64,000 nucleotides of DNA from positions 2,528,001 to 2,592,000 of the forward strand of contig CAXXHB010000003.1 in assembly GCA_963664815.2 (NCBI GenBank). The letters are read 5' to 3'. The notes under the pieces were generated by a model. The model was not told where the DNA came from, did no database searches, and saw only the letters and a list, made by a program, of their open reading frames with translations. The position numbers and the translations under genes were made by a program. Of this stretch, positions 6,263 to 38,643 are shown piece after piece. This stretch comes from Spirochaetota bacterium. Lineage in GTDB: Bacteria > Spirochaetota > UBA4802 > UBA5550. Each line of letters begins with the position of its first letter. The stretch's first letter is position 1.

Positions 6263-6482
6263 AGCTTTTGAGATTTTGCATAAAATCGCCATTTACAGTC
6301 TCTCCGCTGATTGGAGAAATATTTATTTTACAGGATTATTATTTTTTCCGGTAAAATCACCGGATTATTACTGCATGTTATTTCAAAGACCGGAAGAAAA
6401 CAATGTTAAAATTCCTATGACTGTTCTGAGTATAATCGAAACATGTTCTGCCCGATGCCAGCGATTTCGTTCAACAAAAGTT
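6263..6482 (+). repeat. repeat B (IS91-like end) with collapsed repeat A
   Basis: gcttttgagattttgcataaaatcgcc...cgttcaac-aaaa-gttatgcg; the hairpin between AAC and GTT is missing. Confidence 0.85.
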
Positions 6483-7128
6483 ATGCGTTGTGCCCGAATA
6501 CTTTTTCAATTTCTTGATAAATCCAAAAATCATCTTTATTGCTATCCAGCTCATTCTTATAAAAATATTTTGATAATACCCATAATCCCATATCTATTTT
6601 TTTATAATCTTTTATTGTAACGCCAAAACGTTCAAGGATTGTATCGATTGCTTTTTTATATAGATCATAAATCTTGAAATCTAATAATTTTTTACCTTTA
6701 ATCATTCCTGTCGATAATAGTATATTTTTAATAAAATCTGAAACCATATTATCGTATATTGGATACTTCGATGGATTATGTAAAGAACAATATTTCGTTG
6801 CAAAAGAATAAAAATCATATTCCTTCCCTCCTTTTGACTTAATCCCATGACCAAGTCGAATTTTATCAACGACTGAAAGCTCTCCTTTTGATAACATATC
6901 ATCAATATTTTTTATAGATAATATATGATTGGACAAGCTGATAACGTCGAAAACTGGTGTAGAATATAATGTTTTTATAACTGTTGTCTTTAATAAAACA
7001 TCTTCAATTTTTTGGTTTAGGGGTATTGCCTTCAGTAATTTTTCAATTGCATTATCAGACAGTCCATAGCGAGGATGTCGTAAGAATATATCTTGGCATT
7101 TAGTAATACTTTCATTCGATAATATCAT
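6481..7128 (-). CDS. hypothetical cassette protein (helix-hairpin-helix glycosylase-like)
   Basis: YSFATKYCSLHNP..YPIYD motif; stop codon TAA lies inside the R'' box (gcaTAAc). Confidence 0.65.
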   Translation of the reverse strand: MILSNESITKCQDIFLRHPRYGLSDNAIEKLLKAIPLNQKIEDVLLKTTVIKTLYSTPVFDVISLSNHILSIKNIDDMLSKGELSVVDKIRLGHGIKSKGGKEYDFYSFATKYCSLHNPSKYPIYDNMVSDFIKNILLSTGMIKGKKLLDFKIYDLYKKAIDTILERFGVTIKDYKKIDMGLWVLSKYFYKNELDSNKDDFWIYQEIEKVFGHNA

Positions 7129-7181
7129 TTTTAATTCACCCTTTCATATAATTAATTCATTAATCATGTTCCCATCATTCA

Positions 7182-7936
7182 GAAATGTCACTCCTGGAGA
7201 CACCCTTTTTATGCATTATAATCACTTGATCAACATACTCCCGCTTCTTCATTATTTTGAAATACTGTCGAGATTTCCCAAGACTCTGTTCATTGTTAGC
7301 AACTCTCAATGATTCAAGTTTATATCCGTACTAAGGATGAACATTCTATATCCGGTTTTGTTTTAATTCTTCTCCGGATTCAGTTGCCACTTTCTCATTT
7401 AGATAAAACCGGAAATCATATGGGAAAGATATATCCCCTGATCTATAATGACTTGTCACCAAGCTGTGACCATATACCGTTCTGCCTTTTGAATGAGAAT
7501 AATGCCACCCGAGACTTTCTATCTTCTTCGGTTTTCCCGGCTTCTCTATCACAGTATCATCTATTATTAAAAAGCCTGTCCCGTTTTTCTTCGCGATACA
7601 TTTTAAAATTCCTGTTAAATATTAAAAGATCTTTAAAGGTCCAATCTGTGTCTCTTATAAACATTATATCATTACTAACATCTCTTGTGTCAACCTGAAT
7701 GGAGTTGAGACTTGAGATTGTATGACGACCATCATATTCTATTATCCCATTCAGCATCTTATTAAAATGCCTCATTTGCTATTTTGAAAAAATTTCTTTC
7801 ACGCTGTAAAATATCTGTCTTCTGTAATCTGTTTTTTATTTATTAGAATTTTTCAAATACTATTCATAATGGAGTAAAAATTAATACTATTTTTATCCCA
7901 TTATCTTTTTTCTTTTAAAAAAACGCCTAGCTCAAA
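7182..7936 (-). mobile_element. IS701-family derivative, internally deleted and degenerate
   Basis: homologous to 35386-36697; same two internal deletions as 19365-20189; left end lost. Confidence 0.85.
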
Positions 7937-8148
7937 TAACTTATTAACTATCAGAAATGTTTTTTAAGTTCATGGAATCATTTTTATACAGAACTTTTCC
8001 TGTTTGAAAAACTTAAGCCCTGTTCAATAACAAAATAATAAAAAAAATGACCAGATTTATAAAACTGGTCGAATTCCCACCGGAACAAACTGTAGAATGC
8101 AGAAAATAAAAATGCGTATAAATACATAATTAAGAGATCATAATAACA

Positions 8149-9567
8149 ATGAAGCGAATTTTGCCGATCATTTTAGCTGCTTTGTTTTGTGCCGCCCCCC
8201 TCAGCGCTGAATACCTTTTTCTGACAGACGGTTCAATAATCGGCGGCAGCATAATAAGCGAAACTGTTACAGCCGTTGTCTTCCGCTCCGCCAGAGATAA
8301 AAAGGTAACAAGATATCCGCGGACCAATGTAATGAGGGTTCTATACACCGAACTCAACATGGGCCGTCTCTATGTTCAGATGAAGAGCGGCGACAATATG
8401 CTGTTATTCATGGTGGATGAAGACCGCACCACATACACCTTCCGCAAAGAACTTTACAAACCGGAAGAACTGAAACTTGAACGGGCTGATGTGCTTTTTG
8501 TGGCAGAACGCAACCCTTCTAAACTTATCGGTAAAGCGGATTATACATCCATTGAAATTGAATGGTATCCCCCTTTTGACGAGATGAAATATTACAATAT
8601 CTACATCAAGAATAAAAAGGAGGACCCGTTTATCGTTGCCGGAACATCTTCAAAAAAATCATTTCATCTGAAAAATCTCAAAGGCAACACAAAATATCTT
8701 ATCTCTGTAACAGGTGTTGATAAAAATAAGGAAGAAACACCACATAGCAACCTTCTTGAGATATCCACACTAAATACTTTACCATACGCACCCGGAGGAT
8801 TGGAGGTTACAGCCAATGAAAATGGTACTGTAACAGCCCAATGGAAGCCGGCAGTTGACCCAGACGGAATAGTGAAAAAATACAGGGTTTTTATTGTCAA
8901 AGGAAAAGATCGAACACTGTTTGGTGAAACAGAGGGCACGCGGATTGTTATAACCAAAAGCCCCTTGAAGATAGACCGTATCCAGGTTGTCTCCGTTGAC
9001 AACAGCGGGGCTGAATCTAAAATCTCCGACATCCGGGCTTTTCAGCCATATACCGGCAGACTGGCGTTTACGCCAATGCTTTTATTCCCCTTTGCTGAGT
9101 TCGGAAAGATGGGATCTGTGGGGTACGGCGGAACGGTTTCATATCTCCATAATGACATTTTTTTCAGGAATACACGAATCGGTCTGGAAGGCGGGTACTT
9201 TTATATTCCGGGAGTGAATTCTCTCAATGATTCTGGCCAGAAGGTTGAAAGAATCAATTTTGTTCCCTTTGGAATAAAGACGGGGTACCAGTTTAATACA
9301 AAAGGCGGATTATACTTATCACCTGCGGTGACCGCCGGGGCGGCGTATATAGACACCGCGTGTGTCAACAGCAGCAAAAATACAGGTATTCTCACTGACA
9401 ACGCGCACAGCGGAATTGATATGATGACGCTTGTATCAGTTAGCGCGGGGTGGAATATTTCAGAAAACTTTTTTTGGGGAATACGCGGAGACTACGGTAT
9501 CCTTTTCGAGAAGGATAAGCTGCTTCATTTCGCCCTTTGCGGTATAGATATGGGCTGGAGGTTCTGA
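8149..9567 (+). CDS. secreted fibronectin type III protein with C-terminal outer-membrane beta-barrel
   Basis: signal peptide, two Fn3-like repeats (LKGNTKYLISVTGVD; W..AVD), terminal GWRF. Confidence 0.75.
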   Translation: MKRILPIILAALFCAAPLSAEYLFLTDGSIIGGSIISETVTAVVFRSARDKKVTRYPRTNVMRVLYTELNMGRLYVQMKSGDNMLLFMVDEDRTTYTFRKELYKPEELKLERADVLFVAERNPSKLIGKADYTSIEIEWYPPFDEMKYYNIYIKNKKEDPFIVAGTSSKKSFHLKNLKGNTKYLISVTGVDKNKEETPHSNLLEISTLNTLPYAPGGLEVTANENGTVTAQWKPAVDPDGIVKKYRVFIVKGKDRTLFGETEGTRIVITKSPLKIDRIQVVSVDNSGAESKISDIRAFQPYTGRLAFTPMLLFPFAEFGKMGSVGYGGTVSYLHNDIFFRNTRIGLEGGYFYIPGVNSLNDSGQKVERINFVPFGIKTGYQFNTKGGLYLSPAVTAGAAYIDTACVNSSKNTGILTDNAHSGIDMMTLVSVSAGWNISENFFWGIRGDYGILFEKDKLLHFALCGIDMGWRF

Positions 9568-9569
9568 TA

Positions 9570-10942: not shown

Positions 10943-10980
10943 GATTTTGCTCCATGTATGTTTTCATTAATTCTATCGCT

Positions 10981-11854: not shown

Positions 11855-11910
11855 AAGCTCCTTACATTAACCAGCCATGCTATGTATAACTATTGTAAAT
11901 TTTCTTACTA

Positions 11911-11980
11911 GTCTGCCAGGTCAGAAAGCTCGCCCCCCTCTTTCCCCTCATAAGAACCGTACGTGAAAGTTTTACCACAG
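11911..11980 (-). ncRNA. group II intron 3' end remnant (DVI and half of DV)
   Basis: minus strand ...ttcacgtacggttctt...ctgacctggcagAC. Confidence 0.8.
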
Positions 11981-12128
11981 AACAACATAAACATTTTTAT
12001 TAATTTCATATCAACAGAAAAAGTCAATATCAATCTTGACATAGCAGGAAGTATAGGGCAATAGTTTCATATTCATAATAAAACGTGTGATGAAGAGTCA
12101 TTCATTAATAAATATTCCGGAGGAGAAT

Positions 12129-12707
12129 ATGCATTTTAAAATAAAATCAGCAAGTCTAATAGCGGCCCTAATCTTGATCTTTGGAGCAGTTGCTTTCTTT
12201 GCAAATGAAAGCACCGCGCAGGGAAAGACATACAAGATAGGAGATAAAGGCCCAGCCGGAGGTCGGGTATTTTATGACAAAGGTAATTCTGATGACGGCT
12301 GGAGATATTTGGAAGCAGCACCAGTTGATCAGAGCGTTAAATCAGAATGGGGTTGTTATGAAAAATCAATACCCGGAGCACAAGGTACAGCCATAGGGAC
12401 TGGTAAAAGCAACACGGAGGCTATAGTTAAAAGTTGTGGAGAAGCAAAAATAGCAGCTGAATTATGCACTGCATACAGAGGCGGCGGAAAAAGTGACTGG
12501 TTTTTGCCATCTAAAGATGAGCTTAACCGAATGTATATGAATTTGTATAAAAACGGTGTTGGCGGTTTCGTTGGTACCCTCTATTGGAGTTCGTCTGAGA
12601 ACGATGCTGGCAGCGCCTGGGGGCAGAATTTCTACAGTGGCGCCCAGGGCGACGGCAATAAGGACAACACCTTCAGAGTTCGGGCTGTCCGGGCTTTTAT
12701 CAATTGA
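12129..12707 (+). CDS. secreted DUF1566/CLec-fold protein, putative DGR target (copy 1)
   Basis: ggag RBS before ATG 12129; DWFLPSKDEL, YWSSSE..AW...F, RVRAVRAF. Confidence 0.85.
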   Translation: MHFKIKSASLIAALILIFGAVAFFANESTAQGKTYKIGDKGPAGGRVFYDKGNSDDGWRYLEAAPVDQSVKSEWGCYEKSIPGAQGTAIGTGKSNTEAIVKSCGEAKIAAELCTAYRGGGKSDWFLPSKDELNRMYMNLYKNGVGGFVGTLYWSSSENDAGSAWGQNFYSGAQGDGNKDNTFRVRAVRAFIN

Positions 12708-12851
12708 AATATTTAACTATTTTTACTTTCCCGCTGTAGCGGGTTCAAAAATTTTTAATGGTATCCTATGGCGCTTACTAAACTCAAGGATGAATTGCAA
12801 TAAGGTACGAGCTTAAAATATCAGCAGGAAATATCCGAATACATTGAAGAT

Positions 12852-13188
12852 AAGTATACCCGGAGTTTTTGAGACGTTGCATAAAATCGCCATTTACGGT
12901 CTATCCGCTGACTGGACAAATAATGATTTTACTGGATTATTTTTTTCCGGTAAAATCACCGGATTTTTACTGTATGTTATTTCAAAGACCGGAAGAAAAC
13001 GGTATTCAAATTCCTATGACTGTGCTGAGTATAATCAAAGTATGTTCTGCCCGATATCAATGGTTTTGTCCAACAAAAGTCTTAACATAGCTGCTGTCTG
13101 AAATTTAAAATTATCTGCTTAATATTTTTATACCGCTGATAAAGACCAGCGGTTTTTTTGGGCAGCTACGTTAAGACTTCTATAAGTT
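12852..13188 (+). repeat. repeat B plus repeat A (inverted attC-like hairpin, 13068-13188)
   Basis: gtccAAC-aaaagtcttaacatagctgc...gcagctacgttaagactt-ctataa-GTT. Confidence 0.9.
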
Positions 13189-14463: not shown

Positions 14464-15549
14464 TTGTCAATGTTTTATGGGATAGATCTTCACACAGATA
14501 GTTTTAAAGCAGCAGTTTTAGGAGAAAACACGGACGAACTGACAATGGAAACAGTCAGTTTAAAAACAGAAGCATTTAGGAGATTTTTAAGTAAACTGAT
14601 GATTGAGGATTATATAGTCGTTGAGGCATCAACCAATACATTCTGGTTTGTGGAACAGGTTAAAGAATATGTAAAGGAAGTCTATGTTGTAGATCCTTAC
14701 AAGTTTTCAATAATATCGAATTCCAGGAAGAAGACTGATAAGATTGATGCCATTAAACTGGCAAAGAAATTGAAATATTATGTATGCTACGATAAATCAT
14801 CGGATGAATTTCCGATAATCTACGTTCCATCAAAGGAAGTTAGCGAGTTGAGAAGCATGTTTGTAACGTATGAAATGCTCAAGAAACAGGCATGTATGAC
14901 AAAGAACCGTATCAGGTCACTTTTCCGTCAGAATGGTATTTTCGGATTTTCTAAGGAAAATCTTTCATACAACCACATACAGGACAGGATCAGGAGTCTG
15001 CCTGTCAGTGAGGCATTTTTAGTTCAAATCAATATTTTGCTATCAACGCTCAATTCTCTTGAAAATGAAAAAGAGAATATAAAGAAAGCAATTCTGAAGA
15101 AAGGGAAGATATTTTACAGAGAGATACGGATTCTGACAAGTATCCGCGGCATAAGCCCTTTTCTTGCTATCGCAATAATGTCAGATATTGCAGATATTAA
15201 CAGATTTCCCAGTGCTAAAAAACTATGCTCGTATTTAAGAACAGCTCCCCGAATAGATGCATCAGGGAACACAGCACATGTTGGTAAGGTGAATAAACAG
15301 TCAAGGACATTGACTGCCAGTTTAATGACAGAGAGTATAAAGCATTTCATTGATTCAAGTGACAGGCTTTATAAGTTTTATTTTGAAAAAAGGAAAGGTA
15401 AGAATGCCGGAAAGGTTCGTGTTGCAGTAATGCGCAAGATCATCGTTATCATTTATAATATGCTGAAAGAGAATAAAATGTATTACTATACTGATGAAAA
15501 AAACCATGTAGCAAAGATGAAACAATATGAGTCAGCATTAGCTGCATGA
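14464..15549 (+). mobile_element. IS110-family transposase
   Basis: YGIDLH, VVEAS and KTDKIDA (DEDD RuvC domain); LTSIRGI...DINRF..AKKLCSY..SG. Confidence 0.93.
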
Positions 15550-16189
15550 TTTTTTATAAATATTTTTAAAAAGTGTTGATTTTCATCATAGACGACGCCG
15601 CTCATGTCGACGCAGCTCAATACAGGCAGTGCATCGCCTGTTATATGCCGACAGGGGGTCACTGAGCCAGCCGAAGTGCAAACATCCTGTTTGCCCGACA
15701 GAACCGCCTGAGCAACAGCCCGACACAATATTAATGGATTTTAAATTACCGGATTTATAATTTCAAGAATAATTCGTATGTAGAAATTTGAATAAATAAA
15801 CAATTGATTCTTTATAACAACCAATATATCTGCTTTTAAATTACTGTTAAACGATACTTTCCGGAATAAATTATCAGTATTTCTTAATCATCAGAATAAA
15901 AGTATCCATTCATGATCTTCCTACATCCACCACAATCATAATACATCAATATGCAGATAATAATCTACAACCACTCTGCTTCGCCGGAGGTGAACGATAC
16001 CTCACCGGTTCAAGAATCTCTTTCACTACAAGCCTTCCGGTTTTGCATGCAGGGCAGCATGAAAGGTTTTTACCTGTGACGCGCAGATAGATTTAACTCC
16101 ATGTCTGCGGTATACTTTCATTCTTCTTTTGAATTTCGTAAAACTCGCGGCATGCCGCAACAGCCTTCTTTTTTTTCCGGTGAGAGAGA

Positions 16190-16397
16190 ATTCCGAAGTA
16201 CCAACAGGGCAAACAATCTTGCCCTTTGCCGGATGTTTCTTGGTCAGCCTCTGGCGGAGCAGGATGAGCGGAGCAAAGAGCTTCTTGAGGATACAGCTTT
16301 CCTGGTCTGGAAATATTTCAGGATTGATATAACTCTCTGCAGGGAGTGTGGAAAAGGACACATTCATTATATCCATGGCTTGTCGACTTACGGTTAG
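16190..16397 (+). pseudogene. C-terminal fragment of an IS91-like (Y2) transposase
   Basis: NRANNLALCRMFLG...IDITLCRECGKG zinc-ribbon-like tail directly upstream of repeat B. Confidence 0.55.
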
Positions 16398-16448
16398 CTG
16401 TTATAAAGAAGTATATCCGCACAGATTTAAAAACTGTTTTATAGAGAG

Positions 16449-16793
16449 GATAAGTATGCCCGGAGCTTTTAAGATTTTGCATAAAATCGCCATTTACGGT
16501 CTCTCCGCTGACTGGAGAAATAATTATTTTACGGGATTATTATTTTTTCCGGTAAGATCACCGGATTATTACTGTATATTATTTCAAAGACCGGAAGAAA
16601 ACGGTATTCAAATTCCTGTTATGAGTATTCTGAGTATAATCGAAGCATATTCTGCCCGATTCCAGTGGTTTCGTCCAACAAAAGTTTTAACATGGCTGCT
16701 GTCTGAAGATTGAAATTATCTATCTAATATTTTTATACCACTGATAAAGACCCGCGGTTCTTTTGGGCAGCTACGTTTAGACTTCTATAAGTT
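16449..16793 (+). repeat. repeat B plus repeat A (16673-16793)
   Basis: same repeat as 12852-13188; ends in GTTATGTGC. Confidence 0.9.
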
Positions 16794-17282
16794 ATGTGCA
16801 GTACTACCGCGTTTTTTAAAAAATCTGGGAATAAATCTTCCTGTATCCTTACAATATTTTTCATACTCGTTAGGGAAAATAGTTTTTAAATCTTTTTCTT
16901 CTTTTATAATTAGCAAATGCCAAATAGGGTGTAGAATCAATGCCCAAATAATAAATATCCAATTATTTAATAAAAATGCCAAACCAAAATTAAAAAAAGT
17001 TAAAAATGCTGCATACAAAGGATGCCGAAAATATCTCAACGCTCCTGTAGTTATTAATGCCTTACCTCGTAATTTTGGATTTAATGAAACAAGACTCCAA
17101 GTAATTATTATAATGCTAACAATAGTTAATAACACAAAAATAGACACAGGAACAAAATCTTGATTATTAAACACTTGAGGAATATTTAACAAATTTTTTA
17201 AATAAAATGAGATTATTAATAATGCTAAACTTATTAATAATCCAATAGGCCCCGACCCAAATATTCTATTGAAATTATTCAT
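16785..17282 (-). CDS. isoprenylcysteine/phospholipid methyltransferase family membrane protein (cassette)
   Basis: LITTGALRYFRHPLY, EEKDL..IF..EY..Y..TGRFIP; reads through the R'' box. Confidence 0.85.
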   Translation of the reverse strand: MNNFNRIFGSGPIGLLISLALLIISFYLKNLLNIPQVFNNQDFVPVSIFVLLTIVSIIIITWSLVSLNPKLRGKALITTGALRYFRHPLYAAFLTFFNFGLAFLLNNWIFIIWALILHPIWHLLIIKEEKDLKTIFPNEYEKYCKDTGRFIPRFFKKRGSTAHNL

Positions 17283-17317
17283 ATAATTCTCCTTTTCAAA
17301 TATTGCTTGCGGTAGTA

Positions 17318-18080
17318 GTCTGCCAGGTCAGGGAACCCGTACCCCCTTTTCCCAATAAGAACCGTATGTGAAAGTTTCACCACAGGCACTTCCTCCGGAC
17401 GCCCTTTATGCGGCTCAAGCCGTCTAAAGCTGATTATACAATCAGCCGCTGTTATCTGATTTTATTCTCATTTTTCTATAGCAGAAATAATCAGAATCTT
17501 CTTTTAAAAATGGGCTCCTGTCAAGACATATCATTCTGTGCCGTACAATTTTAATGTGTCCCGCAGTAAAGAGAATCTCCTCATCAGAACATAAAGTTTG
17601 AGTCTCTTTTCCTATGCGTTTTACAGTACCGGTTTTTAAGCCATAAAGAATTTTTCATCGTATGTCTGGAACTGCCCCATCTCCATAGAGCCTGAAAAAG
17701 AACAGTATTGGAATTTTTAAAAGGATTCCTTTTAAAACCATTCCCCGGAGCTTTTGAGACGTTGAATAAAATCGCCATTCACGGTCTATCCGCTGACTGG
17801 AGAAATAATTATTTTATGTGATTTTTATTTTTTCCGGTAAAATCACCGGATTTTTACTGTATATTATTTCAAAGACCGGAAGAAAACGGTATTCAAAATC
17901 CTATTTATACTTGTGCTTAGTATTATCGAAGCATGTTCTGCCCGATGTCAGTGGTTTCGTCCAACAGAAGTCTTAACATAGATGCTGCTTGAATTTTAAA
18001 ATTATCTGCTTAATATTTTTATACCGCTAATAAAGATTAGCGGTTTTTTTGAGGCAGCTACGTTAAGACTTCTATAAGTT
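17318..18080. mobile_element. composite repeat: group II intron 3' remnant, linker, repeat B, repeat A
   Basis: intron DV/DVI and RT C-terminus (LFQALWRWG..H..K) on the minus strand; same junction as 20558-21470 and 37932-38643. Confidence 0.85.
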
Positions 18081-18432
18081 ATATGATTTTTTTGGTCCCT
18101 TCATTACACGAAAATCCTCTATTTTTTATTCTTTTTTCTTTTTTATCTTTAACAAATTCAAGTTTATAATGTAACACTGAAAGTATCGGTGTCAGAGTAT
18201 TTAAGCTGATGTTAGTACTTTTTCCTGATCTTAGATTTTGAATCATTGTTGGAGAAACACCTGATTCTTCTGCTAGTTTTCTGACAGAAATTTTATTTTC
18301 TTCCATAGCTTCAATAAGAAATTCAGAAATAAGAAATTTTTCATATCCTTTTTCAAAATCAGCTTTCCATTCCGGGTCTTGCATGAGTTTATCAAATGTA
18401 CTTAATTGTTCGGGGGCTTTATTCTTCTTCAT
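18079..18432 (-). CDS. XRE HTH antitoxin
   Basis: ISVRKLAEESGVSPTMIQNLRSG; stop codon inside the R'' box. Confidence 0.85.
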   Translation of the reverse strand: MKKNKAPEQLSTFDKLMQDPEWKADFEKGYEKFLISEFLIEAMEENKISVRKLAEESGVSPTMIQNLRSGKSTNISLNTLTPILSVLHYKLEFVKDKKEKRIKNRGFSCNEGTKKII

Positions 18433-18896: not shown

Positions 18897-19134
18897 GAGT
18901 ATCTGCCTGTTATATGCCGGTAAAGGCAGGTGCGCCGATATTGCAATTTTTAAAGTGTTTTGATATACCGGAAAAGTCAATCCTGTTATCGACCAGGGCT
19001 CTCCAGCGGTTTCATCCAACAAAAGTCTTAACATAGCTGCCATCTGAAGATTAAAATTATCTGCTTAATATTTTATACATCTGATAAAGAATGACGGTTC
19101 TTTTGGGGTAGCTACGTTTAGACTCCTATAAGTG
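18897..19134 (+). repeat. variant repeat B plus repeat A (19014-19134)
   Basis: divergent upstream segment ending gcggtttcatccaac, then the typical hairpin; core is GTG instead of GTT. Confidence 0.8.
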
Positions 19135-19154: not shown

Positions 19155-19364
19155 TTAATCTATAAGTTTTATAGATATTATTTTAATATCACAAATATCA
19201 TTACCTTTCTCATATGCGGCATCAAATTGTATTTCTTTAATGGTTGTAACGATAGGGTCTATGTTAAATTCTTTTATTGGAATAGTAATTGTATAGGTGT
19301 TATCAGATGGTTTTTTAATAGAATATTGGTCAGATTCATTCAAATAACTCCAAATATTAATTAA
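19155..19364 (-). pseudogene. 3' fragment of a cassette gene truncated by IS701
   Basis: short AT-rich ORF abutting the IS701 end at 19365. Confidence 0.55.
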
Positions 19365-20501: not shown

Positions 20502-20557
20502 AAGCTCCTTACATTAACCAGCCATGCTATGTATAACTATTGTAAATTTTCTTACTA

Positions 20558-21470
20558 GTCTGCCAGGTCAGGAAGCTCGCGCCTCCTTTCTCCCATAAAA
20601 ACCGTACGTGAAAGTTTTACCACAGGCACTTTCTCCGGTCGCCCTTCATACAGCTCAAGCCGTCTAAAGCTGATTATACAACCAACCGCTGTTAGCTGTT
20701 TTTATTCCCGTTTTTCTATAGTAGAAATAATCAGAATCTTCTTTTAAAAATGGGTTCCTGTCAAGACTTATCATTCTGTGCTGCACAATTTTAATGTGTC
20801 CCGCAGTAATGAGAATCTACTCATCAGAACAGAAAGTTTAAGCCCCTGTTACCTATGCGTTTTAAAGTACCGGTTTTTAAGCCATAAAGAATTTTTCATC
20901 GGGTGTCTGGAACTGCCCCATCTCCATAGAGCCTGAAAAAGAACAGTGTTGTGATTTTTAAAGAATTCCTTTTAAAACCATTCCCCGGGAGCTTTTAAGA
21001 CGTTGAATGAAATTGCCATTCACAGTCTATCCGATGATTGCATAAGTACTTCATTTATAATTATTATCAGATAATCTAATAATTGTCTGGACCCTGATTT
21101 ACCTGATTACAGGATGGTCAGGATTCACCTGCCAGTTCCGGAGACTAAATCATGATAATCTTTTAATCCTTTAATCCCGATTCAGATAGCTGTAGTATCA
21201 GGTTTTTACAAGATTTTTTGTTTTTCCGGTAAAATCACCGGATTCTTACTGCATGTTACTTCAAAGACCGTGAGAAAACTGTATTCAAATTCCTGTTATG
21301 ACTATTCTGAGTATAATCGAAGCATGTTCTGCCCCGATATCAGCGGTTTCGTCCAACAAAAGTCTTAACATAGATGCTTCCTGAATTTTAAAATTATCTG
21401 CTTAATATTTTATACATCTGATAAAGAATGACGGTTCTTTTGGGCAGCTACGTTAAGACTTCTATAAGTT
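20558..21470. mobile_element. composite repeat (intron remnant, B, A) with a REP-like insertion
   Basis: as 17318-18080, with an extra palindromic segment at about 21085-21186. Confidence 0.85.
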
Positions 21471-21485
21471 GTACGTCGTTTGATT

Positions 21486-28033: not shown

Positions 28034-28371
28034 ATCTGCCAGGTCAGGAAGATCGCGCCTCCTTCCCCCCATAAATACCGTACGTGAAAGTTTTACCACA
28101 GGCACTTCCTTCGGTCGCCCTTTTTACGGCTCAAGCCGTCTAAAGCTGATTATACAACCAACCGCTGTTAGCATTTTTATTCCCGTTTTTTATATCAGAA
28201 ATAATCAGAATATTCTTTTAAAATGGGTTCTGCCCGATTCCAGTGGTTTCGTCCAACAAAAGTCTTAACATAGATGCTTCCTGAATTTTAAAATTATCTG
28301 CTTAATATTTTATACATCTGATAAAGATTAGCGGTTTTTTTGAGGCAACTACGTTAAGACTTCTATAAGTT
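28034..28371. mobile_element. shortened composite (intron 3' end fused to the end of repeat B, plus repeat A)
   Basis: deletion at the gttc microhomology near 28228. Confidence 0.85.
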
Positions 28372-28617
28372 ATATGAAGGCGGCGCGCTATACAGCAACC
28401 AGTCGCAGCAATACAAGGAAGTATTGCTGCGTTTATAAGAAACCGATTTTACCACAGAACAACATAAACATTTTTATTAATTTCATATCAACAGAAAAAG
28501 TCAATATCAATCTTGACATAGCAGGAAGTATAGAGCAATAGTTTCATATTCATAATAAAACGTGTGATGAAGAGTCATTCATTCATTCATTCATTAATAA
28601 ATATTCCGGAGGAGAAT

Positions 28618-29205
28618 ATGCATTTTAAAATAAAATCAGCAAGTTTAATTGCGGCTTTAATCATGATCTTTGGAGCAGCAGCTTTCTTTGCAAATGAAAG
28701 CAACGCGCAGGGAAAGACATACAAGATAGGGGACAAAGGCCCTGCCGGAGGCTGGGTATTTTATGACAAAGGTAATTCTGATGACGGATGGAGATATTTG
28801 GAAGCAGCACCAGTTGATCAGACTACAAAAGATGGTGCAGAATGGAGTTGCTATAAAAAATCAATACCCGGCGCACGAGGTACAGCCATAGGGACAGGTA
28901 AAAGTAATACAGAGGCTATAGTTAAAAGCTGTGGAGAAGCAAAGATAGCAGCTAAACTATGTACTGCATACAGAGGCGGCGGAAAAAGTGACTGGTTTTT
29001 GCCATCGAAAGATGAGCTTAATCTGATGTATGCAATTTTGTGTGTAAAAGGTGTTGGCAGTTTCGCTGATAACCATTATTGGAGTTCGTCGCAGAACCTT
29101 GCTGGCCTCGCGTGGTACCAGAGTTTCGGCAATGTCCTCAAGAAGGGCACCATCAGGGAGGACAACGTGCTTAGGGTTCGGGCTGTCCGGGCTTTTAACA
29201 ATTGA
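28618..29205 (+). CDS. secreted DUF1566/CLec-fold protein, putative DGR target (copy 2)
   Basis: paralogue of 12129-12707 with a strongly divergent C-terminal segment. Confidence 0.85.
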   Translation: MHFKIKSASLIAALIMIFGAAAFFANESNAQGKTYKIGDKGPAGGWVFYDKGNSDDGWRYLEAAPVDQTTKDGAEWSCYKKSIPGARGTAIGTGKSNTEAIVKSCGEAKIAAKLCTAYRGGGKSDWFLPSKDELNLMYAILCVKGVGSFADNHYWSSSQNLAGLAWYQSFGNVLKKGTIREDNVLRVRAVRAFNN

Positions 29206-29345
29206 ACTATTTAACTATTTTTCTTTTCCCGCGATAGCGGATTCAAATTTTTTTTAATGGTATCCTATGGCGCTTACTGAATTCAAGGATGAATTGCAAT
29301 AAGGTACGAGCTTAAAATATCAGCAGGAAATATCCGAATACATTG

Positions 29346-29663
29346 AAGATAAGTATATCCGGAGTTTTTGAGACGTTGCATAAAATCGTCATTTACGGTC
29401 TATCCGTTGACTGGACAAATAATGATTTTACGGGATTATTATTTTCCCCGGTAAAATCACCGGATTATTACTGCATGTTATTTCAAAGAACGGGAGAAAA
29501 CGGTATTCAAATTCCTATATATACTGTTCGATCCCAGTGGTTTCGTCCAACAGAGTCTTAACATAGTTGTTGTCTGAAGATTGAAATTATCTGTTTAATA
29601 TTTTTATACCGCTGATAAAGACCAGCGGTTTTTTGGGCAGCTACGTTAAAACTTCTATAAGTT
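29346..29663 (+). repeat. repeat B plus repeat A (29545-29663)
   Basis: same repeat family; ends in GTTATATG. Confidence 0.9.
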
Positions 29664-29728
29664 ATATGAAGCGGCCTCTAATAAAAATATATCCGACTTG
29701 AGGCATGGACTCCGAAAGACGGCAATAA

Positions 29729-30271: not shown

Positions 30272-31163
30272 TTATTCCTCCTTTATGAGCTAACGTATTT
30301 CTTTTATTCAAAATATATGATGTCAGTTCATTCGTAGCTATTAACTGAATAAATTTCTCAAGACTGAGGAATAATATTAAAGGGTAACGATTTTCATACT
30401 TTTCAAGATTATTGATTAGTATTTCTTTATAAAGAACTAGACCGAGATTCGAATTAGTTGCATTTAAATAATTATTCATTTGAGAATATATCTTAGTAAT
30501 GCTGTTGTCATTTTTAATTGTTTTTTTAAATTCAATTAAAAGTGGATTCTGAATACTTTTTTGTAACTCATCAATCCAGATAGCTAAATCGATTCCTTTA
30601 TCAATTGAATTTGAATTCGAAACACTCGTTATGTGATTAAAATTTGATAAAAAATGTTCAATGTTTTCAATAATTTCACTTTCATTCTCAATCTGATATA
30701 TTTTATTTATAAATTGATTATAATTGAATTTTTTATCAACTTTAGGAATTCTTTTTTGTTCACTTATTTTTTTAGTTTTATTTTTAATATTAAGATTATC
30801 AATAAATACATTTAAGTTAAACGATATAGCATCATAATCATTTTCATTTGCCTTAATATTCGGAAATTCTTTTAAAGTATGGGGAATATCTATATCTGGT
30901 TCATAAATAATAAAGATAGGTTTATTCATTCCTCTTGCTAAACCAAGTTCAAAATAATTATTTTGAGTAAAGTTTTTGTTTATCATCGCACAAACGAAGT
31001 CAGAAGATTTAATTAACTTTTCAATTAGCTGATTAATAGATAAACCTGGTTCAAATGATAAATCAGCAATATCAATATGATTTTCATTAAGGATGTTTTT
31101 GAGGATAAAATTATTTATATTGTTACTAGAGATTAAAAAGCATTTAGTTTTGTTATTATCCAT
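30264..31163 (-). CDS. TIR/nucleoside-deoxyribosyltransferase-like N-domain plus REase-like C-domain
   Basis: IKSSDFV...NNYFELGLARGMNKPI; DKGIDLAIW..LLIEFK. Confidence 0.65.
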   Translation of the reverse strand: MDNNKTKCFLISSNNINNFILKNILNENHIDIADLSFEPGLSINQLIEKLIKSSDFVCAMINKNFTQNNYFELGLARGMNKPIFIIYEPDIDIPHTLKEFPNIKANENDYDAISFNLNVFIDNLNIKNKTKKISEQKRIPKVDKKFNYNQFINKIYQIENESEIIENIEHFLSNFNHITSVSNSNSIDKGIDLAIWIDELQKSIQNPLLIEFKKTIKNDNSITKIYSQMNNYLNATNSNLGLVLYKEILINNLEKYENRYPLILFLSLEKFIQLIATNELTSYILNKRNTLAHKGGING

Positions 31164-31228: not shown

Positions 31229-31360
31229 GTCTGGTAGGTCAGGGAGCTCGCGCCTCCTTTCTACCATAAGAACCGTACGAGAAAGTTTTACCACAGGCAC
31301 TTCCTCCGGTCGCCCTTCTTACGACTCAAGTCGTCTAAAGATGATTATACAACCAGCTGC
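31229..31360 (-). ncRNA. group II intron 3' end remnant (DV-DVI)
   Basis: ...gtacggttctt...cctgacctaccagAC. Confidence 0.8.
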
Positions 31361-33169: not shown

Positions 33170-33317
33170 TATCAACCTTCGCTCTATTTTAATTTTAGTA
33201 TATTAAAAAATTTCATATTACTTTTGTAACTCTGACTCAGGTGATACAACATCTATTATCTTTAAAAATTCTAATCTTTTCCCGGCATGGAAGCCGGGTG
33301 TAAATTTTATGCGTCTA

Positions 33318-33700
33318 ATCTGTCAGGTCAGGGAGCCCGTACCCCCTTTTCCCATAAGAACCGTACGTGAAAGTTTTACCACAGGCACTTCCTCCGGTCG
33401 CCCTTCTTACGGCTCAAGCCGTCTAAAGATGATTATACAACCAGCCGCTGTTAGCTGTTTTTATTCCCGTTTTTCTATATCAGAAATAATCAGAATCTTC
33501 TTTAAAAATGGGTTTCTGTCAAGACTTATCATTCTGTGCCGTACAATTTTAATGTGTCCCGCAGTAAAGAGAATCTCCTCATCAGAGCTGAAATTTTAAG
33601 TCCCTGTTTCCTATGTGTTTTAAAGTACCTGTTTTTAAGCTATAAAGAATTTTTCATCGGGTGTCTGAATCTGCCCCATCTCCATAGAGCCTGAAAAGAA
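33318..33700 (-). mobile_element. group II intron 3' remnant with decayed RT/maturase C-terminus
   Basis: DV/DVI plus frameshifted LWRWG..HP.K; ends in AT. Confidence 0.82.
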
Positions 33701-33875
33701 CATAGGGGATGGTGTTTAACTGAAATTTTAACTGTAAGTATGCAGCCGGTTCAGCTCTGCTGATTGGCGCGGCTCTTGCTCTTTACCGCAAGGGGCGTGA
33801 CAAAGGCGGAGCATTGAATTATTTTTTATTATCAAAACACTCTGATTTAAATGAGAAAATTATAAGAAGATTTAT

Positions 33876-35353: not shown

Positions 35354-35385
35354 ACATTGCTCACTAAAATGAATTAAACTAATAA

Positions 35386-36697
35386 CTCGAGTTAGGCGTT
35401 TTTTGGACATAGCTACGCCATGAGTTTTAGTTTTTTATAAATGTCCCTCTTGGAGACACCCTTTTTATGCATTATAATCACTTGATCAACGTACTCCCGC
35501 TTCTTCATTATTTTGAAATACTGTCGAGATTTCCCAAGACTCTGTTCATTGTTAGCAACTCTCAATGATTCAAGTAAAGCATACGCAGCAAATACAAGAG
35601 CACAGTATTTTTCTATTGCCTTCAGTTTCCTCATCTGGTATTGACTCATACCAAGACGATCTTTACAATAAAGATATCCAACTTCAATATCCCAGCGAAA
35701 GCTGTAATATTTCAAGATGCCTTCATTATTCAAGTTCATATCCGTACTAAGGATGAACATTATAGATCCGTCCTTGACTCTCTTTGATATCAGTATAATT
35801 GCATTACCGATACCTTTCAGCCAGACTTCTATCCGTCTGACTTTGAAGGCTTCATCCTTTAATTTTACTTTCTCAAAGGATGAGTTTCTTAAGTTTTTCA
35901 CATAAGCTGACAGCTTATGTTTTTTACCATGCTCTTTAAACTGGAATACTCTATTGCTCTTAAGCGCTCCTATAAGTTCAAATTCCCGGTCTTTTACAGC
36001 TTTTACGACTTTCTCCGATGTGTACCAGCTATCTACTAAACAGTATATCTTATCTCCCGTAAAAGGTTCAAACTTATCTATCAATTCACATGCTATATCC
36101 GGTTTTGTTTTAAATACTTCTCCGGATTCAGTTGCCACTTTCTCATTTAGATAAAACCGGAAATCATATGGGAAAGATATATCCCCTGATCTATAATGAC
36201 TTGTCACCAAGCTGTGACCATATACCGTTCTGCCTTTTGAATGAGAATAATGCCACCCGAGACTTTCTATCTTCTTCGGTTTTCCCGGCTTCTCTATCAC
36301 AGTATCATCTATTATTAAAAAGCCTGTCCCGTTTTTCTTAGCGATACATTTTAAAAAATTCCTGTTAACTCTTAAAAGATCTTTACAGGTCCAAGCTGTA
36401 TCTCTTATAAACTTTATATCATTACTAACATCTCTTGTGTCAACCTGAATGGAGTTGATACTTGAGATTGTATGACGACCATCATATTCTATTATCCCTT
36501 TCAGCATCTTAGTAAAATGCCTCATTTGCGGTTTTGAAAAAATTTCTTTCGCCGCTGTAAAATACTTGTCTTCTGTAATCTGTTGTTTATTTTTTTATTC
36601 ATTAGAGTTTTTAAAATACTATTCATAATGGGGTAAAAAATTAATACTATTTTTTGCCCCATTATCTTTTTTCTTTTAAAAAAACGCCTAACTCAAG
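35386..36697 (-). mobile_element. IS701-family element, full length (transposase 35413-36525)
   Basis: 19-bp inverted repeats, TAA on both flanks, LIIDDT..K, LVDSWY, Y..RW.IE. Confidence 0.93.
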
Positions 36698-36871
36698 TAA
36701 TAATCTAAAAATTGTTTAAAGTATATCAATTAAAATAACTATAACACCTTTCAGATTTTTGAATAAATTGCAGATCAAAGTCAATAATTTATTCAAAAGC
36801 AATATTTTATATTTAACGTGCCTGCTGAGATATAAGCTGGCATGTTTTATTAAATATATCTGCAGCAGAAA

Positions 36872-37145
36872 AAATTATTTTACAGAATTATTATTTTCCC
36901 CGGTAAAATCACCGGATTTTTACTGTATGTTGTTTCAAAGAACGGAAGAAAACGGTATTCAAATTCCTGTTATGACTATTCTGAGTATAATCGAAGCATA
37001 TTCTGCCCGATTCCAGTGGTTTCGTACAACAAAAGTCTTAACATAGCCGCTGTCTGAAGATTAAAATTATCTGCTTAATATTTTTATACCGCTAATAAAG
37101 ACCAGCGGTTTTTTTGGGGCAGCTACGTTAAGACATCTATAAGTT
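36872..37145 (+). repeat. repeat B (partial) plus repeat A (37024-37145)
   Basis: same repeat family; ends in GTTATGTGC. Confidence 0.9.
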
Positions 37146-37197
37146 ATGTGCAGTTCAACACGCTAACTAAAAAATATTTATTCAAACATTGAATGAA

Positions 37198-37866
37198 TTA
37201 ATTTTGAAATAATAATCTATTCTGAATTAATCTACCAAGTTCTGAACTCAACTTTTCAAAGTTTCTATCAAAATCTGATTTTGCAACATTATTTATAACT
37301 TCGTTATTACTAGTAATAATGAACCGATAAACAGTAAGAGTACTTTTTAAGAATTCTGAGATTTCATTGATTTTTAGATCTAAATTTTCAGGCAAGAAAA
37401 TTCTGTTATTATCATATGTATTAATAAAATCAAAACACGATTGTTGTAACACAAACATTCCGTTTGTTCTTGTAATATTTATATATTCTTGCATTTTATT
37501 TTCTGATTGAATAATCATATTTTTTTCAAACAAGCTAAAAGGAGTTTTTGCTAAAATATCACTAAGTTCTTCATCAGTAAGTGTGTCCATGTCTAATGCA
37601 AGGAAATAATTATTAGTATAGAATTGAAGATTTCTTTTATGAATTTGTAGCTTACTCCAGATAATGGGTAGAACTTCGAATTCGCGTTGATTTATTTTAG
37701 AAATACGATCAAATTCAAGGTTTATTTTTTGTTTATATTTCTCAATACTTTTGTTGAATTGCGATTCAATAAATTTATTTCCAAAATATTTAGATAATCC
37801 TATGAATAAAAGTATGGCCGAACCAACCGAAGTAGATGTTGTAATAAAAAATGTCTTTATATCCAT
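37198..37866 (-). CDS. hypothetical cassette protein with N-terminal TM segment
   Basis: 222 aa, ggag RBS, bounded by the cassette inverted repeat ttcaacacgct / agcgtgttgaa. Confidence 0.7.
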   Translation of the reverse strand: MDIKTFFITTSTSVGSAILLFIGLSKYFGNKFIESQFNKSIEKYKQKINLEFDRISKINQREFEVLPIIWSKLQIHKRNLQFYTNNYFLALDMDTLTDEELSDILAKTPFSLFEKNMIIQSENKMQEYINITRTNGMFVLQQSCFDFINTYDNNRIFLPENLDLKINEISEFLKSTLTVYRFIITSNNEVINNVAKSDFDRNFEKLSSELGRLIQNRLLFQN

Positions 37867-37931
37867 AGTTTCTCCTATTAAAAAGATTACTGTTTATATA
37901 AAACGTCGAACGAAAAGTCCAGCGTGTTGAA

Positions 37932-38643
37932 GTCTGGTAGGTCAGGAAGTTCACGCCCCCTTTCCCGTAAGAACCGTACGTGAATGTTCCCCTTCGTACG
38001 GCTCAAGCTGTCTTAAGCTTTCTATACAACCAGCTGCTGTTAGCTGTTTTTATTCCCGTTTTTCGATATCAGAAATAATCAGAATATTCTTTTAAAATGT
38101 GTTCCTGTCAAGACTTATCATTTTGTGCTTTACAATTTTAATGTGTCGCACAGTATTAAGAATCTCCTCATCAGAGCAGAAAGTTTAAGTCCCTGTTACC
38201 TATGTGTTTTAAAGTACCTGTTTTTAAGCTATAAAGAATTTTTCATCGGGTGTCTGAATCTGCCCCATCTCCATAGAGCCTGAAAAAGAACAGTATTGGA
38301 ATTTTTAAAAGGATTCCTTTTAAAACCATTCCCCGGAGCTTTTGAGACGTTGAATAAAATCGCCATTCACGGTCTATCCGTTGACTGGAGAAATAATTAT
38401 TTTATGTGATTTTTATTTTTTCCGGTAAAATCACCGGATTTTTACTGTATGTTATTTCAAAGACCGGTAGAAAACGGTATTCAAAATCCTATTCTATTTA
38501 TACTGTTCGATCCCCGTGGTTTCGTCCAACAGAGTCTTAACATAGTTGTTGTCTGAAGATTGAAATTATCTGTTTAATGTTTTTATACCGCTAATAAAGA
38601 TTAGCGGTTTTTTGAGGCAACTACGTTAAGACTTCTATAAGTT
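37932..38643. mobile_element. composite repeat (intron remnant with canonical DV, B, A)
   Basis: 34-nt DV at 37971-38004, GAGCCGTACGAAGGGGAACATTCACGTACGGTTC on the minus strand. Confidence 0.88.

Follow-up and report, generated by a model that had tools for sequence, protein, structure and literature searches.

Ten copies of repeat A, nine of them full and one collapsed, occur in a cassette array within the window, the whole 64,000-nt stretch of Spirochaetota DNA analysed. Repeat A is commonly preceded by repeat B with a conserved box. Seven 3' remnants of group II introns (M1) lie in the same array, each with a sharp end just upstream of the next gene, together with remnants of IS91-family Y2 transposase genes of two types. 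Repeat A is distributed as follows.

6463..6482 (+): collapsed repeat A, reduced to box-AAC-AA-AAGTT and followed at once by the flank
13068..13187 (+): repeat A, full (arm matches, alignment, fold)
16673..16792 (+): repeat A, decayed; outer stem folds no better than shuffled sequence
17959..18080 (+): repeat A, full; junction overlaps the stop codon of an HTH (HigA-like) ORF, 18079..18432(-)
19014..19133 (+): repeat A, junction GTG; only about 20 nt of B kept
21351..21470 (+): repeat A, inner hairpin broken
28251..28370 (+): repeat A, B deleted to about 20 nt; fused directly to a partial intron remnant
29545..29664 (+): repeat A
37024..37144 (+): repeat A
38524..38643 (+): repeat A; on its variable side, the R'' box of cassette 38714-39562

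All ten lie where the original prediction had placed them. The right arm with its junction (repeat family D13, n = 9) starts in agreement at 13154, 16759, 18046, 19100, 21436, 28337, 29629, 37111 and 38609, and an 18-nt arm is matched 17 times on the two strands of the window, against 0.04 expected. In the collapsed copy the core was lost between short direct repeats. Full copies number 26 genome-wide; relatives were found too in further spirochaete-type genomes and in metagenomes.

The top strand was assigned through linkage to the Y2 gene. The + strand reads GTCCAAC ... GTTAT(R)Y around a 19-bp stem, an imperfect palindrome between R'' and R' boxes of attC type (consensus RYYYAAC..GTTRRRY in the available text of PMC5027507). 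Over 18 bp the outer stem is 94.9% paired in 26 aligned sequences from many genomes. Both sides have changed at 5 of 18 outer-stem pairs and 5 of 8 inner-hairpin pairs. The covariation claimed earlier is confirmed, with a score of 0.133 against 0.105 for shuffled alignments, reached in 0 of 500 shuffles and exceeding every slid control. Extrahelical bases are absent from the stem in alignment and fold; the spacers measure 2 and 6 nt. Being an almost perfect palindrome, the outer stem leaves its own orientation ambiguous. A folding bias towards the minus strand through G.T pairs had been proposed. It holds in the alignment, where two pairs show G.U, in 23 and 9 of the 26 sequences respectively, favouring the strand opposite the Y2 gene; in energy it is modest, with the minus strand of the nine copies more stable as DNA in five and the plus strand in four (mean difference 0.9 kcal/mol). 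Repeat A is a conserved, covarying, attC-like hairpin.

Repeat B and the box precede A as follows.

6263..6462 (+): B and box; begins 2 nt past the stop of + strand ORF 5263..6261
12846..13067 (+): B and box; downstream of + strand Lcl_C-domain gene 12087..12707; terminator-like hairpin at 12946-12963(+)
16395..16672 (+): B and box
17744..17958 (+): B and box
21182..21350 (+): B and box; extra piece at 20985-21067
29345..29544 (+): B and box; downstream of + strand Lcl_C-domain gene 28564..29205
36867..37023 (+): B and box, cut short by a DDE transposase element
38332..38523 (+): B and box

In the sense of the Y2 gene, the stop codon is followed by B (about 200 nt, one terminator-like hairpin within it), the box GTGGTTTCGTCCAAC, 2 nt, the 19-bp stem around another terminator-like hairpin, 6 nt and GTT. 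The box is present on one side of A in 26/26 genomic copies. B had been reported before every copy; it adjoins A at 8 of the 10 window sites and is reduced to its remnant in copies 19014 and 28251. Terminator-like hairpins of B and A all point in the transposase sense (12 sites in 8.9 kb; 4.4 +/- 2.2 when shuffled). The B hairpin and the outer and inner hairpins of A form subterminal palindromes downstream of the transposase gene, as in IS91. An identical internal deletion, joining reference positions 331 and 979, is shared by three window copies lying between different genes; the copies thus spread after decay. Identical flanks of some units lie in segmental duplicates (11906/20553 and C3:3686986/3692393).

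Read on the + strand, homology between copies ends at GTT (AAC when the - strand is read), with GTG in copy 19014, exactly as first described; beyond it only a weak consensus C-R-Y-A-T/C is aligned. The junction is the AAC of the neighbouring cassette's own R'' box. Stop codons of ORFs 6481..7128(-) and 18079..18432(-), earlier placed within that box, both overlap the junction TAAC. On the variable side a convergent cassette gene usually comes to its 3' end: in 21 of the 26 genomic copies an ORF of 50 aa or more on the same strand stops within 80 nt. About 23 distinct variable flanks were counted by eye among the 26. The variable downstream flank typical of attC is found for A only when it is read in the Y2 sense; native E-type sites are variable on both flanks. 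One E-type site of the window is interrupted inside its R'' box by an IS110-family element.

Cassette 38714-39562 opens with TTATATG just past a native site; its last bases, CATATAAC, adjoin A. The native site is listed here.

39620..39722 (-): native C-type attC, gene-sense; the start of cassette 38714-39562 comes from its R'

Start and end are complementary over about 20 nt in 8 of 27 cassette rows (7 distinct cassettes), in agreement with the proposed fusion at a neighbour's R'' box. The claimed inversion is seen as well: A occupies the strand opposite E- and C-type native sites in 5/5 clusters (comparably oriented queries). On its constant side A continues into the tail of its own element, and the AAC/GTT shared by both partners contains the join. 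The relics may have replaced native attC sites; no pair of filled and empty attC alleles was found.

In relatives, a gene for an IS91-family Y2 transposase, partnered by a tyrosine recombinase, has repeat A about 250 nt beyond its stop codon. The full element foreseen in the original prediction, with tyrosine recombinase, IS91-type Y2 transposase, B and A all together, occurs at loci L061 and L075. At L061 a degraded recombinase is followed by a 381-aa Y2 protein (PF04986 2.7e-48, PF14319 3.5e-19), B and A; at L075 the recombinase frame is split and followed by a 381-aa Y2, B and A. L076 has the same recombinase and transposase pair, L065 a shorter transposase frame and then A. Box, hairpin and GTT stand about 250-330 nt past the Y2 stop codon in 6 of the 7 loci examined with both a Y2 frame and its downstream sequence; at L062 the contig ends earlier. 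Y2 proteins at box-bearing loci are 27-39% identical to type 2, except the type-2-like L065 (59%). The L075 element lies forward, directly past another site's 3' arm. It starts with TTGGACTAAACCAC, complementary to the element's own box, and start and R'' box match at 7/7 positions, as in an ordinary cassette. The labels 'mimic' and 'parasitic' first attached to the repeat are conjectural.

In the window, Y2 genes survive as the following remnants.

16119..16394 (+): C-terminus remnant of type-2 IS91-family Y2 (residues 104-198 of the 198-aa relic, 74% identity)
15697..16200 (-): type-1 Y2 C-terminal tail (residues 335-418, 90% identity) at 15949-16200(-), with its 3' region

Both tails precede the copy at 16673, before which a Y2-like tail had been noticed. 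The box of the type-1 remnant is severed after GTC by an IS110-family element. The 198-aa type-2 relic matches PF04986 at 1.4e-24 and sits, antisense, between B and M1 in long unit variants. No intact type-2 transposase gene was found in this genome. Its sole intact Y2 transposase is type 1, 24% identical to type 2 over the matched part; it matches PF04986 and PF14319 as does L061, the profile of a zinc-binding Y2 HUH protein of the IS91 family, and is likewise followed by box, hairpin and GTT. YAAC is fixed beside A, and the other end is closed by ..CAAC in L075 and L061; both differ from the known IS91 tetranucleotides. A is very probably the 3'-terminal attC-type hairpin of a 2.5-kb unit of recombinase and IS91-family Y2 (HUH) transposase, here called type 2. 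The element of the original prediction is found in full in relatives; the window copies (B and A) are decayed, transposase-less relics, not active elements.

The M1 remnants, absent from the earlier account, form the other end of most units.

37931..38320 (-): M1, domains V-VI (RF00029, 41.5 bits, cut-off 40); its terminal ...CCAGAC lies 61 nt ahead of the next ATG
33301..33702 (-): M1 (RF00029, 33 bits); domain V loop carries a 27-nt insert
31229..31360 (-): M1, partial
28035..28230 (-): M1, partial, adjoining A
20556..20972 (-): M1 (RF00029, 33 bits)
17316..17732 (-): M1
11909..11980 (-): M1, final 72 nt only

RF00029 scores 40-59.9 bits at seven further places matching the M1 block, as domains V-VI of a group II intron. 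No D1-D4 intron family is matched even at E = 10 (unit alone searched), M1 retains no open frame and no reverse transcriptase gene, and no similarity was found to the genome's single intron-encoded protein. No displaced native attC remainder was found past the intron-remnant end; such a remainder after A and part of B is present at only three loci elsewhere.

The junctions were probably made site-specifically. Each join would be a single-strand exchange beside YAAC rather than a random breakage. The element's own enzymes would insert a bottom-strand circle in the manner of IS91, after a target tetranucleotide YAAC that matches the one closing the element's other end (..GTCCAAC). Later decay would leave non-autonomous units with a group II intron 3' remnant as far end, and these would then spread within arrays. 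The type-2 hairpin-end anatomy together with inverted, site-specifically joined B and A relics is the best explanation as a whole, favoured tentatively and at a little under an even chance. That the joining enzyme was the element's own Y2 or recombinase is plausible, though it falls short of even. Against joining by these enzymes stand YAAC, which is not among known IS91-family targets, and the lack, past the intron-remnant end, of the native attC remainder expected from simple insertion. The deletion junction common to three copies between different genes, the want of an intact type-2 transposase in this genome and the forward, cassette-like position of the L075 unit also count against this explanation. 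A crossover between G and TT by an integrase and a cut after AAC by a HUH enzyme yield the same sequence; the data therefore cannot separate the two enzymes. Three + strand genes (the two Lcl_C genes and ORF 5263..6261) meet B at one sharp boundary, poorly explained by own-enzyme and wrong-strand models alike.

An integron integrase acting on the wrong strand is a less probable joining enzyme, and A is correspondingly rather unlikely to be the true attC of a recombinase/Y2 cassette inserted backwards at the R'' AAC. A past or donor integrase would have exchanged the bottom strand of A with the folded top strand of a resident attC, cutting in R''. Top-strand attC recombination happens in R'', inverts the cassette and is favoured by loss of extrahelical bases (PMC5027507, available part), and the stem of A is of that kind. 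Its layout, R''-spacer-stem-loop-stem-spacer-R', its box that pairs with the element start as cassette ends do, and the native C and E sites and cassette-like genes around it agree with this origin, as does the integron integrase of 4 of 41 relatives, one of which adjoins an attC-bearing array at L042. This genome (96% complete) is however without one: TIGR02249 finds nothing over cut-off, and the best matches skip model positions 180-234. Among six genomes with Y2 of this group, this one included, that were searched for both features, only G019 has the integrase. The top-strand reaction is 1000-10000 times rarer and, in the part of PMC5027507 available, such insertions are said never to have been observed in arrays, against about 23 different junctions here. 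A 16-nt box conserved across transposases of about 30% identity is also unexpected of a passive cassette.

It is improbable that A is the array's own conserved, VCR-like attC, serving minus-strand genes in ordinary orientation, with box, B and M1 as a conserved leader or insertion at the start of the next cassette. The same-strand gene preceding most copies, the pairing of the R'' before A with the start of the same cassette and the ambiguous orientation of the palindrome accord with it. The variable downstream flank it predicts fails, since box and B are constant in 26/26 and the 5' flank varies, whereas native E sites vary on both sides. At the 3' end of the Y2 unit in L061 and L075, box and B recur in reverse complement, loop and terminators always share the polarity of the Y2 gene, and the implied cassette starts (TTGGAC..) fail to pair with R'' boxes. 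A passive origin is more improbable still. A and B would then be a bidirectional terminator or REP-like module multiplied by duplication and homologous recombination alone, a reading that draws on terminator-like hairpins in both A and B, several units within segmental duplicates and a position between convergent genes at 6263-6482, 12846-13187 and 29345-29664. One triplet joins all the different flanks, the transposase/recombinase pair is linked to the module in other genera and metagenomes, and conservation of the stem exceeds the needs of a terminator, with the box conserved too. The whole A-B-M1 unit has also been considered as a single ORF-less group II intron (5' exon end ..YATAAC, 3' exon start T), as suggested by sharp unit ends on both sides, a 3' end coinciding with that of the RF00029 model, a semi-conserved 5' flank and a first 3' base T in 15 of 19 copies. 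Group II introns typically begin GUGYG. The unit begins TTATAG, matches no domain I-IV family and contains A and B as part of an antisense Y2 unit, with the antisense Y2 relic between B and M1; this reading is close to refuted.

A wider role of the recombinase/Y2 pair is conceivable, if unlikely: the two may be an integrase-independent engine for spirochaete attC-type cassettes, nicking folded hairpins beside YAAC on either strand. Units would be placed forwards at R' or backwards at R'', and decayed B-A units would be mobilised in trans, with the domain VI hairpin, 12 nt and ..GAC as stand-in terminus. Arrays would then be the product of a rolling-circle HUH enzyme, and IS91 ends and attC sites would be linked in architecture. 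Some two dozen different natural junctions, tail to tail, lie precisely where a wrong-strand event would put them. Backwards cassettes are said never to be seen in nature (PMC5027507, as far as available), yet junctions of that kind occur here, in an integrase-less genome, and involve the end of a unit with its own IS91-type transposase and recombinase. Either natural wrong-strand recombination or a second enzyme system reading attC-like hairpins, if true, would change the interpretation of integrase-less arrays.

A literature search, with supplementary files and ISfinder outside its scope, yielded no account of IS91-type transposase units bounded by attC-like sites. Elements of the IS1111-attC group (IS110 family) are mobile elements that insert site- and orientation-specifically in attC; they have a DEDD transposase and are not known to carry an attC-like end of their own. 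The A relics would resemble them in site- and orientation-specific insertion in attC and differ in the transposase family of the type-2 unit.

The following comparisons rest on the available parts of the sources cited. With integron attC of sedentary chromosomal arrays ('Spirochaetes-type'; PMC8352920), A shares the imperfect palindrome, AAC..GTT boxes, spacers, stem and variable loop, the place at the 3' end of a gene unit whose start pairs with the R'' box, and arrays of small strain-specific genes. It differs in the stem without extrahelical bases, cassette-end pairing about 20 nt long, an adjoining 16-nt box conserved across distant transposase lineages, a host without integrase and the opposition of all genomic copies to neighbouring genes. 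Recombination of the top strand at R'' (PMC5027507) predicts exactly the arrangement of A, a backwards cassette at the R'' AAC; it is known from assays alone, as a very rare reaction, in contrast to about 23 distinct natural junctions without an integrase gene. Group IIC-attC introns (PMC3001079) resemble M1 in lying within cassette arrays beside attC-type hairpins, antisense to their polarity; M1 differs in consisting of 3' remnants (domains V-VI) only, without reverse transcriptase gene, in array-gene sense and about 0.2-1 kb from A, not at R''. The IS91 family inserts a bottom-strand circle without target duplication, has subterminal palindromes at both ends and a target tetranucleotide (GTTC, CTTG or GTCC) beside oriIS (PMC13181058). 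The type-2 unit agrees with IS91/ISCR (PMC13181058) in its Y2 with a zinc-binding domain of IS91 type, in palindromes that follow the transposase gene, in the absence of target duplication, in truncated and one-ended derivatives and, apparently, in a short fixed sequence next to the palindromic end, the opposite end being closed by a similar one. The putatively mobile type-2 unit is set apart from IS91/ISCR by its flanking tetranucleotide YAAC, not GTTC or CTTG, by ends that resemble those of an integron cassette and pair in the same way and by its partner tyrosine recombinase.

Repeat A is the terminal hairpin of a transposase unit, stands inverted to the native sites of the array, is joined at one fixed point to many partners, and lies in a genome (5.2 Mb, 38% G+C, three contigs) in which TIGR02249, the integron integrase model, gives nothing over cut-off. 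The 18-nt arm of A matches 17 times over both window strands against 0.04 expected. The repeat search (families D2, D12, D13) yields nine copies of the A right arm with its junction and 8-9 copies of repeat B, ~200 nt parted from A by a conserved box. The nine full copies and the collapsed one lie at the places originally stated:

Copies of repeat A in the window
Starts at 13068, 16673, 17959, 19014, 21351, 28251, 29545, 37024 and 38524, plus strand: nine full copies (repeat search)
6463-6482, plus strand: collapsed copy, core deleted, box-AAC-AA-AAGTT joined directly to the flank

Genome-wide BLAST returns 27 rows of full copies, 26 of them distinct and one a duplicate, besides about eight fragments. 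Copies form five clusters on contig C3, which includes the window at 2528001-2592000 (1.37, 1.97, 2.54-2.57, 3.19-3.21 and 3.69 Mb), plus single copies. The family is defined by BLAST and alignments. In alignment A1, conservation is high from AAC to ~17 nt past the far GTT; upstream of AAC just a weak consensus, C-R-Y-A-Y, is left. Four copies contain a promoter-like match (10 of 12) on the plus strand (13082-13111, 17973-18002, 19028-19057, 21365-21394); over the whole region such matches are not enriched (46 versus 37.2 +/- 6.1).

The consensus fold consists of a 3-bp AAC/GTT box pair, an outer stem of 18-19 bp and an inner hairpin. Of the 26 aligned sequences, six come from this genome; the remaining 20 are from relatives, further public genomes and metagenomes. 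Across them, pairing in the outer stem is 94.9%. Both-side changes occur at 5/18 outer-stem and 5/8 inner-hairpin pairs, and the covariation score is above all 500 shuffles and every slid control. Copies 16673 and 29545 no longer form the outer stem. The proposal that G.T pairs favour folding of the minus strand holds at the level of conserved sequence: at two stem positions the window minus strand has G.U, in 23/26 and 9/26 sequences, where the plus strand would have A.C mismatches. As an energy bias it is weak, the minus strand being the more stable DNA fold in 5/9 window copies and the plus strand in 4/9. On the plus strand, and not on the minus, T runs come after both A's inner hairpin and a hairpin within B; terminator-like sites number 12 in 8.9 kb versus 4.4 +/- 2.2 in shuffles.

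One flank of A is the box and the start of B in 26/26 genomic copies. This constant flank is the tail of the element itself. The opposite flank varies, with ~23 versions counted among the 26 copies. An ORF (at least 50 aa) running against the sense of the Y2 transposase ends within 80 nt of AAC in 21/26 copies.

Window ORFs ending beside A
6481..7128: ORF
16785..17282: methyltransferase-like
18079..18432: HTH gene
DJ-1-like gene
Mrr-like gene
37198..37866: ORF
38714..39562: ORF

A is oriented by the constancy of its box-and-B flank and by its linkage to Y2. Spacer asymmetry (2/6, versus 3/5 and 2/5 in the native C- and E-type sites) was dropped for this purpose; attC sites beside a true integrase on a relative's contig (L042) show 5/3, 5/5 and 1/3. 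Box-first queries for A and for E- and C-type sites match opposite strands in 5/5 clusters, and the predicted inversion of A relative to native attC types holds in each.

Followed in gene sense, the C-type site 39620-39722 runs from ACCTAAC through 3 nt, a 7-bp arm, loop, matching arm and 5 nt to GTTATAT. The cassette after it starts TTATATG and ends CATATAAC; A begins at the next base. Fusion exactly at the neighbour's R'' box, as foreseen in the original prediction, is seen for example where A directly follows the end of cassette 38714..39562. The 12-nt stretch ahead of A recurs reverse-complemented in 8/27 rows, from seven distinct cassettes, at a plausible cassette start 0.5-3.3 kb upstream (at most 2 mismatches over 12 nt; other matches look like chance). 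In four of these rows an identifiable E- or C-type 3' arm precedes the start, with complementarity of ~20 nt. The variable flank is therefore the neighbour cassette's own R''-type end, and two units lie tail to tail sharing AAC/GTT. Cassette starts and ends in these arrays, the unit of the second Y2 lineage (type 1) included, are ~20-nt inverted repeats, far beyond 7-nt R boxes.

For empty against filled sites, two cassette proteins have no orthologue in 63 genomes of the family, save one distant match at 34% identity. A search of 4 same-genus genomes for ORF 5263..6261 found nothing, and paralogous cassettes within the genome, taken as empty/filled pairs, are duplicates only. Three plus-strand genes, the Lcl_C-domain paralogues 12087-12707 and 28564-29205 and the unassigned 332-aa ORF 5263-6261, stop 2-140 nt short of a single, sharp B boundary, with B+A beside them as if serving as their 3' module.

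At other genomic sites, long forms of the unit hold, between B and the next block, a plus-type-strand open frame of 196-198 aa. The frame is the C-terminal half of an IS91-family Y2 transposase (PF04986, 1.4e-24), here type 2. Queried against 122 genomes of the order, this relic has matches in 11, this genome counted. Locus L061 (genome G016) carries a complete 381-aa transposase (PF04986 and PF14319) downstream of a broken tyrosine-recombinase gene. After the transposase come, in order, a B-like stretch, GTGGTTTCGTCCAAC as the box, 2 nt, the stem and loop of A, 6 nt and GTT. A metagenome scan gives 25 loci. Locus L075 has the L061 layout at 76% protein identity; its left end, TTGGACTAAACCAC.., lies directly 3' of another attC-like site's 3' arm and is complementary to its own box (7/7 in the R box, 12/14 past it). 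The tyrosine recombinase and/or IS91-like transposase expected upstream of B+A is therefore present in both L061 and L075. Type 1 has a single intact unit in this genome:

C3:3695386-3697429, minus strand: intact type 1 unit, 287-aa recombinase and 418-aa Y2

It starts with TTGAACAAAACCGCC after a C-type attC, and its far end consists of the box GGCGGTTCTGTCCAAC plus a 60-nt 'E-type' hairpin. Among seven further Y2 loci with downstream sequence, six have the box, a hairpin unrelated in sequence, 5-6 nt and GTT, 250-330 nt past the stop codon; of their proteins, that of L065 is type-2-like and the other five are only 27-39% identical to the type 2 Y2. Four loci show A, B and a type-2 Y2 tail on one strand lying back to back with a type-1 tail and its 3' region on the other, the two tails joining at homologous RFFG/RYFG codons in three:

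Composites of A, B and type-2 tail with a type-1 tail (G000, this genome)
Window 15949-16792
G000:C3:1964273-1965293
G000:C3:3587397-3588021
G000:C3:3689452-3690533

The unit query matches 11/41 relatives (this genome counted), mostly over A alone. The exact two-arm A pattern occurs in 12 stretches of species-representative genomes, ten titled spirochaete lineages and two other MAGs. TIGR02249 is over cut-off in 4/41 relatives. A is absent by BLAST from the relatives' integrase-bearing contigs L041-L044, and a crude attC pattern scan of these gave mostly noise.

The far end of A-B-M1 units is the 390-nt block M1, a group II intron 3' remnant with seven copies in the window and 19 in the genome. 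Rfam matches to domains V-VI on the minus strand comprise one of 41.5 bits at 37932-38006 (cut-off 40) and two below cut-off, at 33322-33417 and 20562-20658; seven other places matching the block score 40-59.9 bits. For M1, no 5' part, D1-D4 match or protein remnant was found. Its end is sharp, ..CCTGACCTRSCAGAC, with T as the next base in 15/19 copies; the next ATG of the window copies lies 31-123 nt past it. On the long reference copy, A+B occupies 24-331, the antisense Y2 relic 402-989 and M1 979-1368. A 331|979 deletion is common to three window copies, each between different genes (17316-18080, 20556-21475, 37931-38643). A as target hairpin or 5' part of a class C group II intron was rejected on the lack of a domain I-IV match, on the non-canonical unit start and on ownership of A and B by an antisense Y2 unit. 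The domain V loop bears a 27-nt insert at 20562-20658 and 33322-33417 and, on locus L018, at 5967-6067, 9281-9381 and 16805-16905; at 37932-38006 it is normal. A short G+C-rich hairpin, CCGGC..GCCGG, lies 15-30 nt past the M1 end and before the next gene start in at least 5/19 copies (e.g. G000:C3:2559224, 2561313, 3686339).

The M1-to-gene joints are best read as putative places where introns long ago entered the base of attC hairpins; one paralogue comparison fits. In this single case, C3:1368985 versus 1382457, an intron remnant stands in place of about the first 18 nt of the cassette, which suggests that it may have replaced them. Alternatively, and speculatively, the domain VI hairpin, 12 nt and ..GAC could have acted as a substitute terminus. 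A complete group II intron in gene sense lies mid C-type attC-like site, with site halves on either side, at L018:2615-4450 (G000:C3:3194615-3196450, minus strand); it has D1-D4-2 (116.6 bits), a 413-aa reverse transcriptase and domains V-VI (51.6 bits) and differs from M1. An apparently complete ORF-less group II intron with a tetraloop-receptor-like motif and domains V-VI (56.1 bits) lies between two genes in G034, a genome of another family of the order (L033:745-1590). A second reverse-transcriptase-like frame (581 aa; G000:C3:1364617-1365141; PF00078, 59.5 bits) sits on the 1.37-Mb cluster's edge.

An insertion at 14464-15720 with an IS110-family transposase gene (14464..15549, plus strand) cuts an E-type box after GTC, just before CAAC; it presumably resembles the attC-targeting IS1111 group. 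Other insertion sequences in the array are three DDE_5/IS4-like copies, two IS3-family and one IS66-family (7127-7800, 19362-20038, 35383-36550; 21909-23065; 23751-26046; 31951-33083). Defence-type cassette genes, as in chromosomal integrons, lie at 18079-18811, 29729-31163 and 38714-39562, and include a Gp49/HigB-like and HTH pair, an Mrr-like nuclease by a weak TIR-like protein, and a DUF2971/AbiGi-like protein.

The junctions probably formed by site-specific single-strand exchange beside AAC. It is quite possible, as a tentative reading, that the element's own Y2 enzyme, perhaps with the recombinase, makes the joins. In the available portion of PMC13181058, IS91-family elements insert a bottom-strand circle beside a target tetranucleotide resembling that ending terIS, without duplication. 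YAAC flanks A, and the other end of full units closes ..GTCCAAC or ..GTTCAAC. Any attC carries YAAC on each of its strands, so units could lie forward (L075, type 1) or backward. The box is kept across distant transposases, which favours a cis site recognised by proteins of the element itself. Joining by an integron integrase acting on the top strand of the resident site is somewhat less likely. In excerpts of PMC5027507, that reaction cuts in R'' and inverts the cassette, is 1000-10000-fold rarer and was 'never observed' in arrays. The transposase and integrase routes leave the identical junction sequence. Neither accounts for the spread of already-decayed units or for the missing displaced native core after M1; a displaced core (E-site 3' half) follows A and 25-70 nt of B at three loci only (C3:1374125, 1375519, 1386228).

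A literature search, with supplements and ISfinder outside its scope, found no paper that describes IS91-type units lying between attC-like sites, or backwards cassette junctions in nature. Spirochaete attCs are a known conserved type in the accessible part of PMC8352920. As judged from sequence, A is attC-like in look and would be so in working; unlike attC, it is without extrahelical bases, and the genome is without an integrase. Group II introns in attC sites are known from the text available of PMC3001079, and M1 stands in the opposite relation to genes from these. By protein the unit is a member of the IS91 family, but its ends and flanking tetranucleotide are unlike those of described members.
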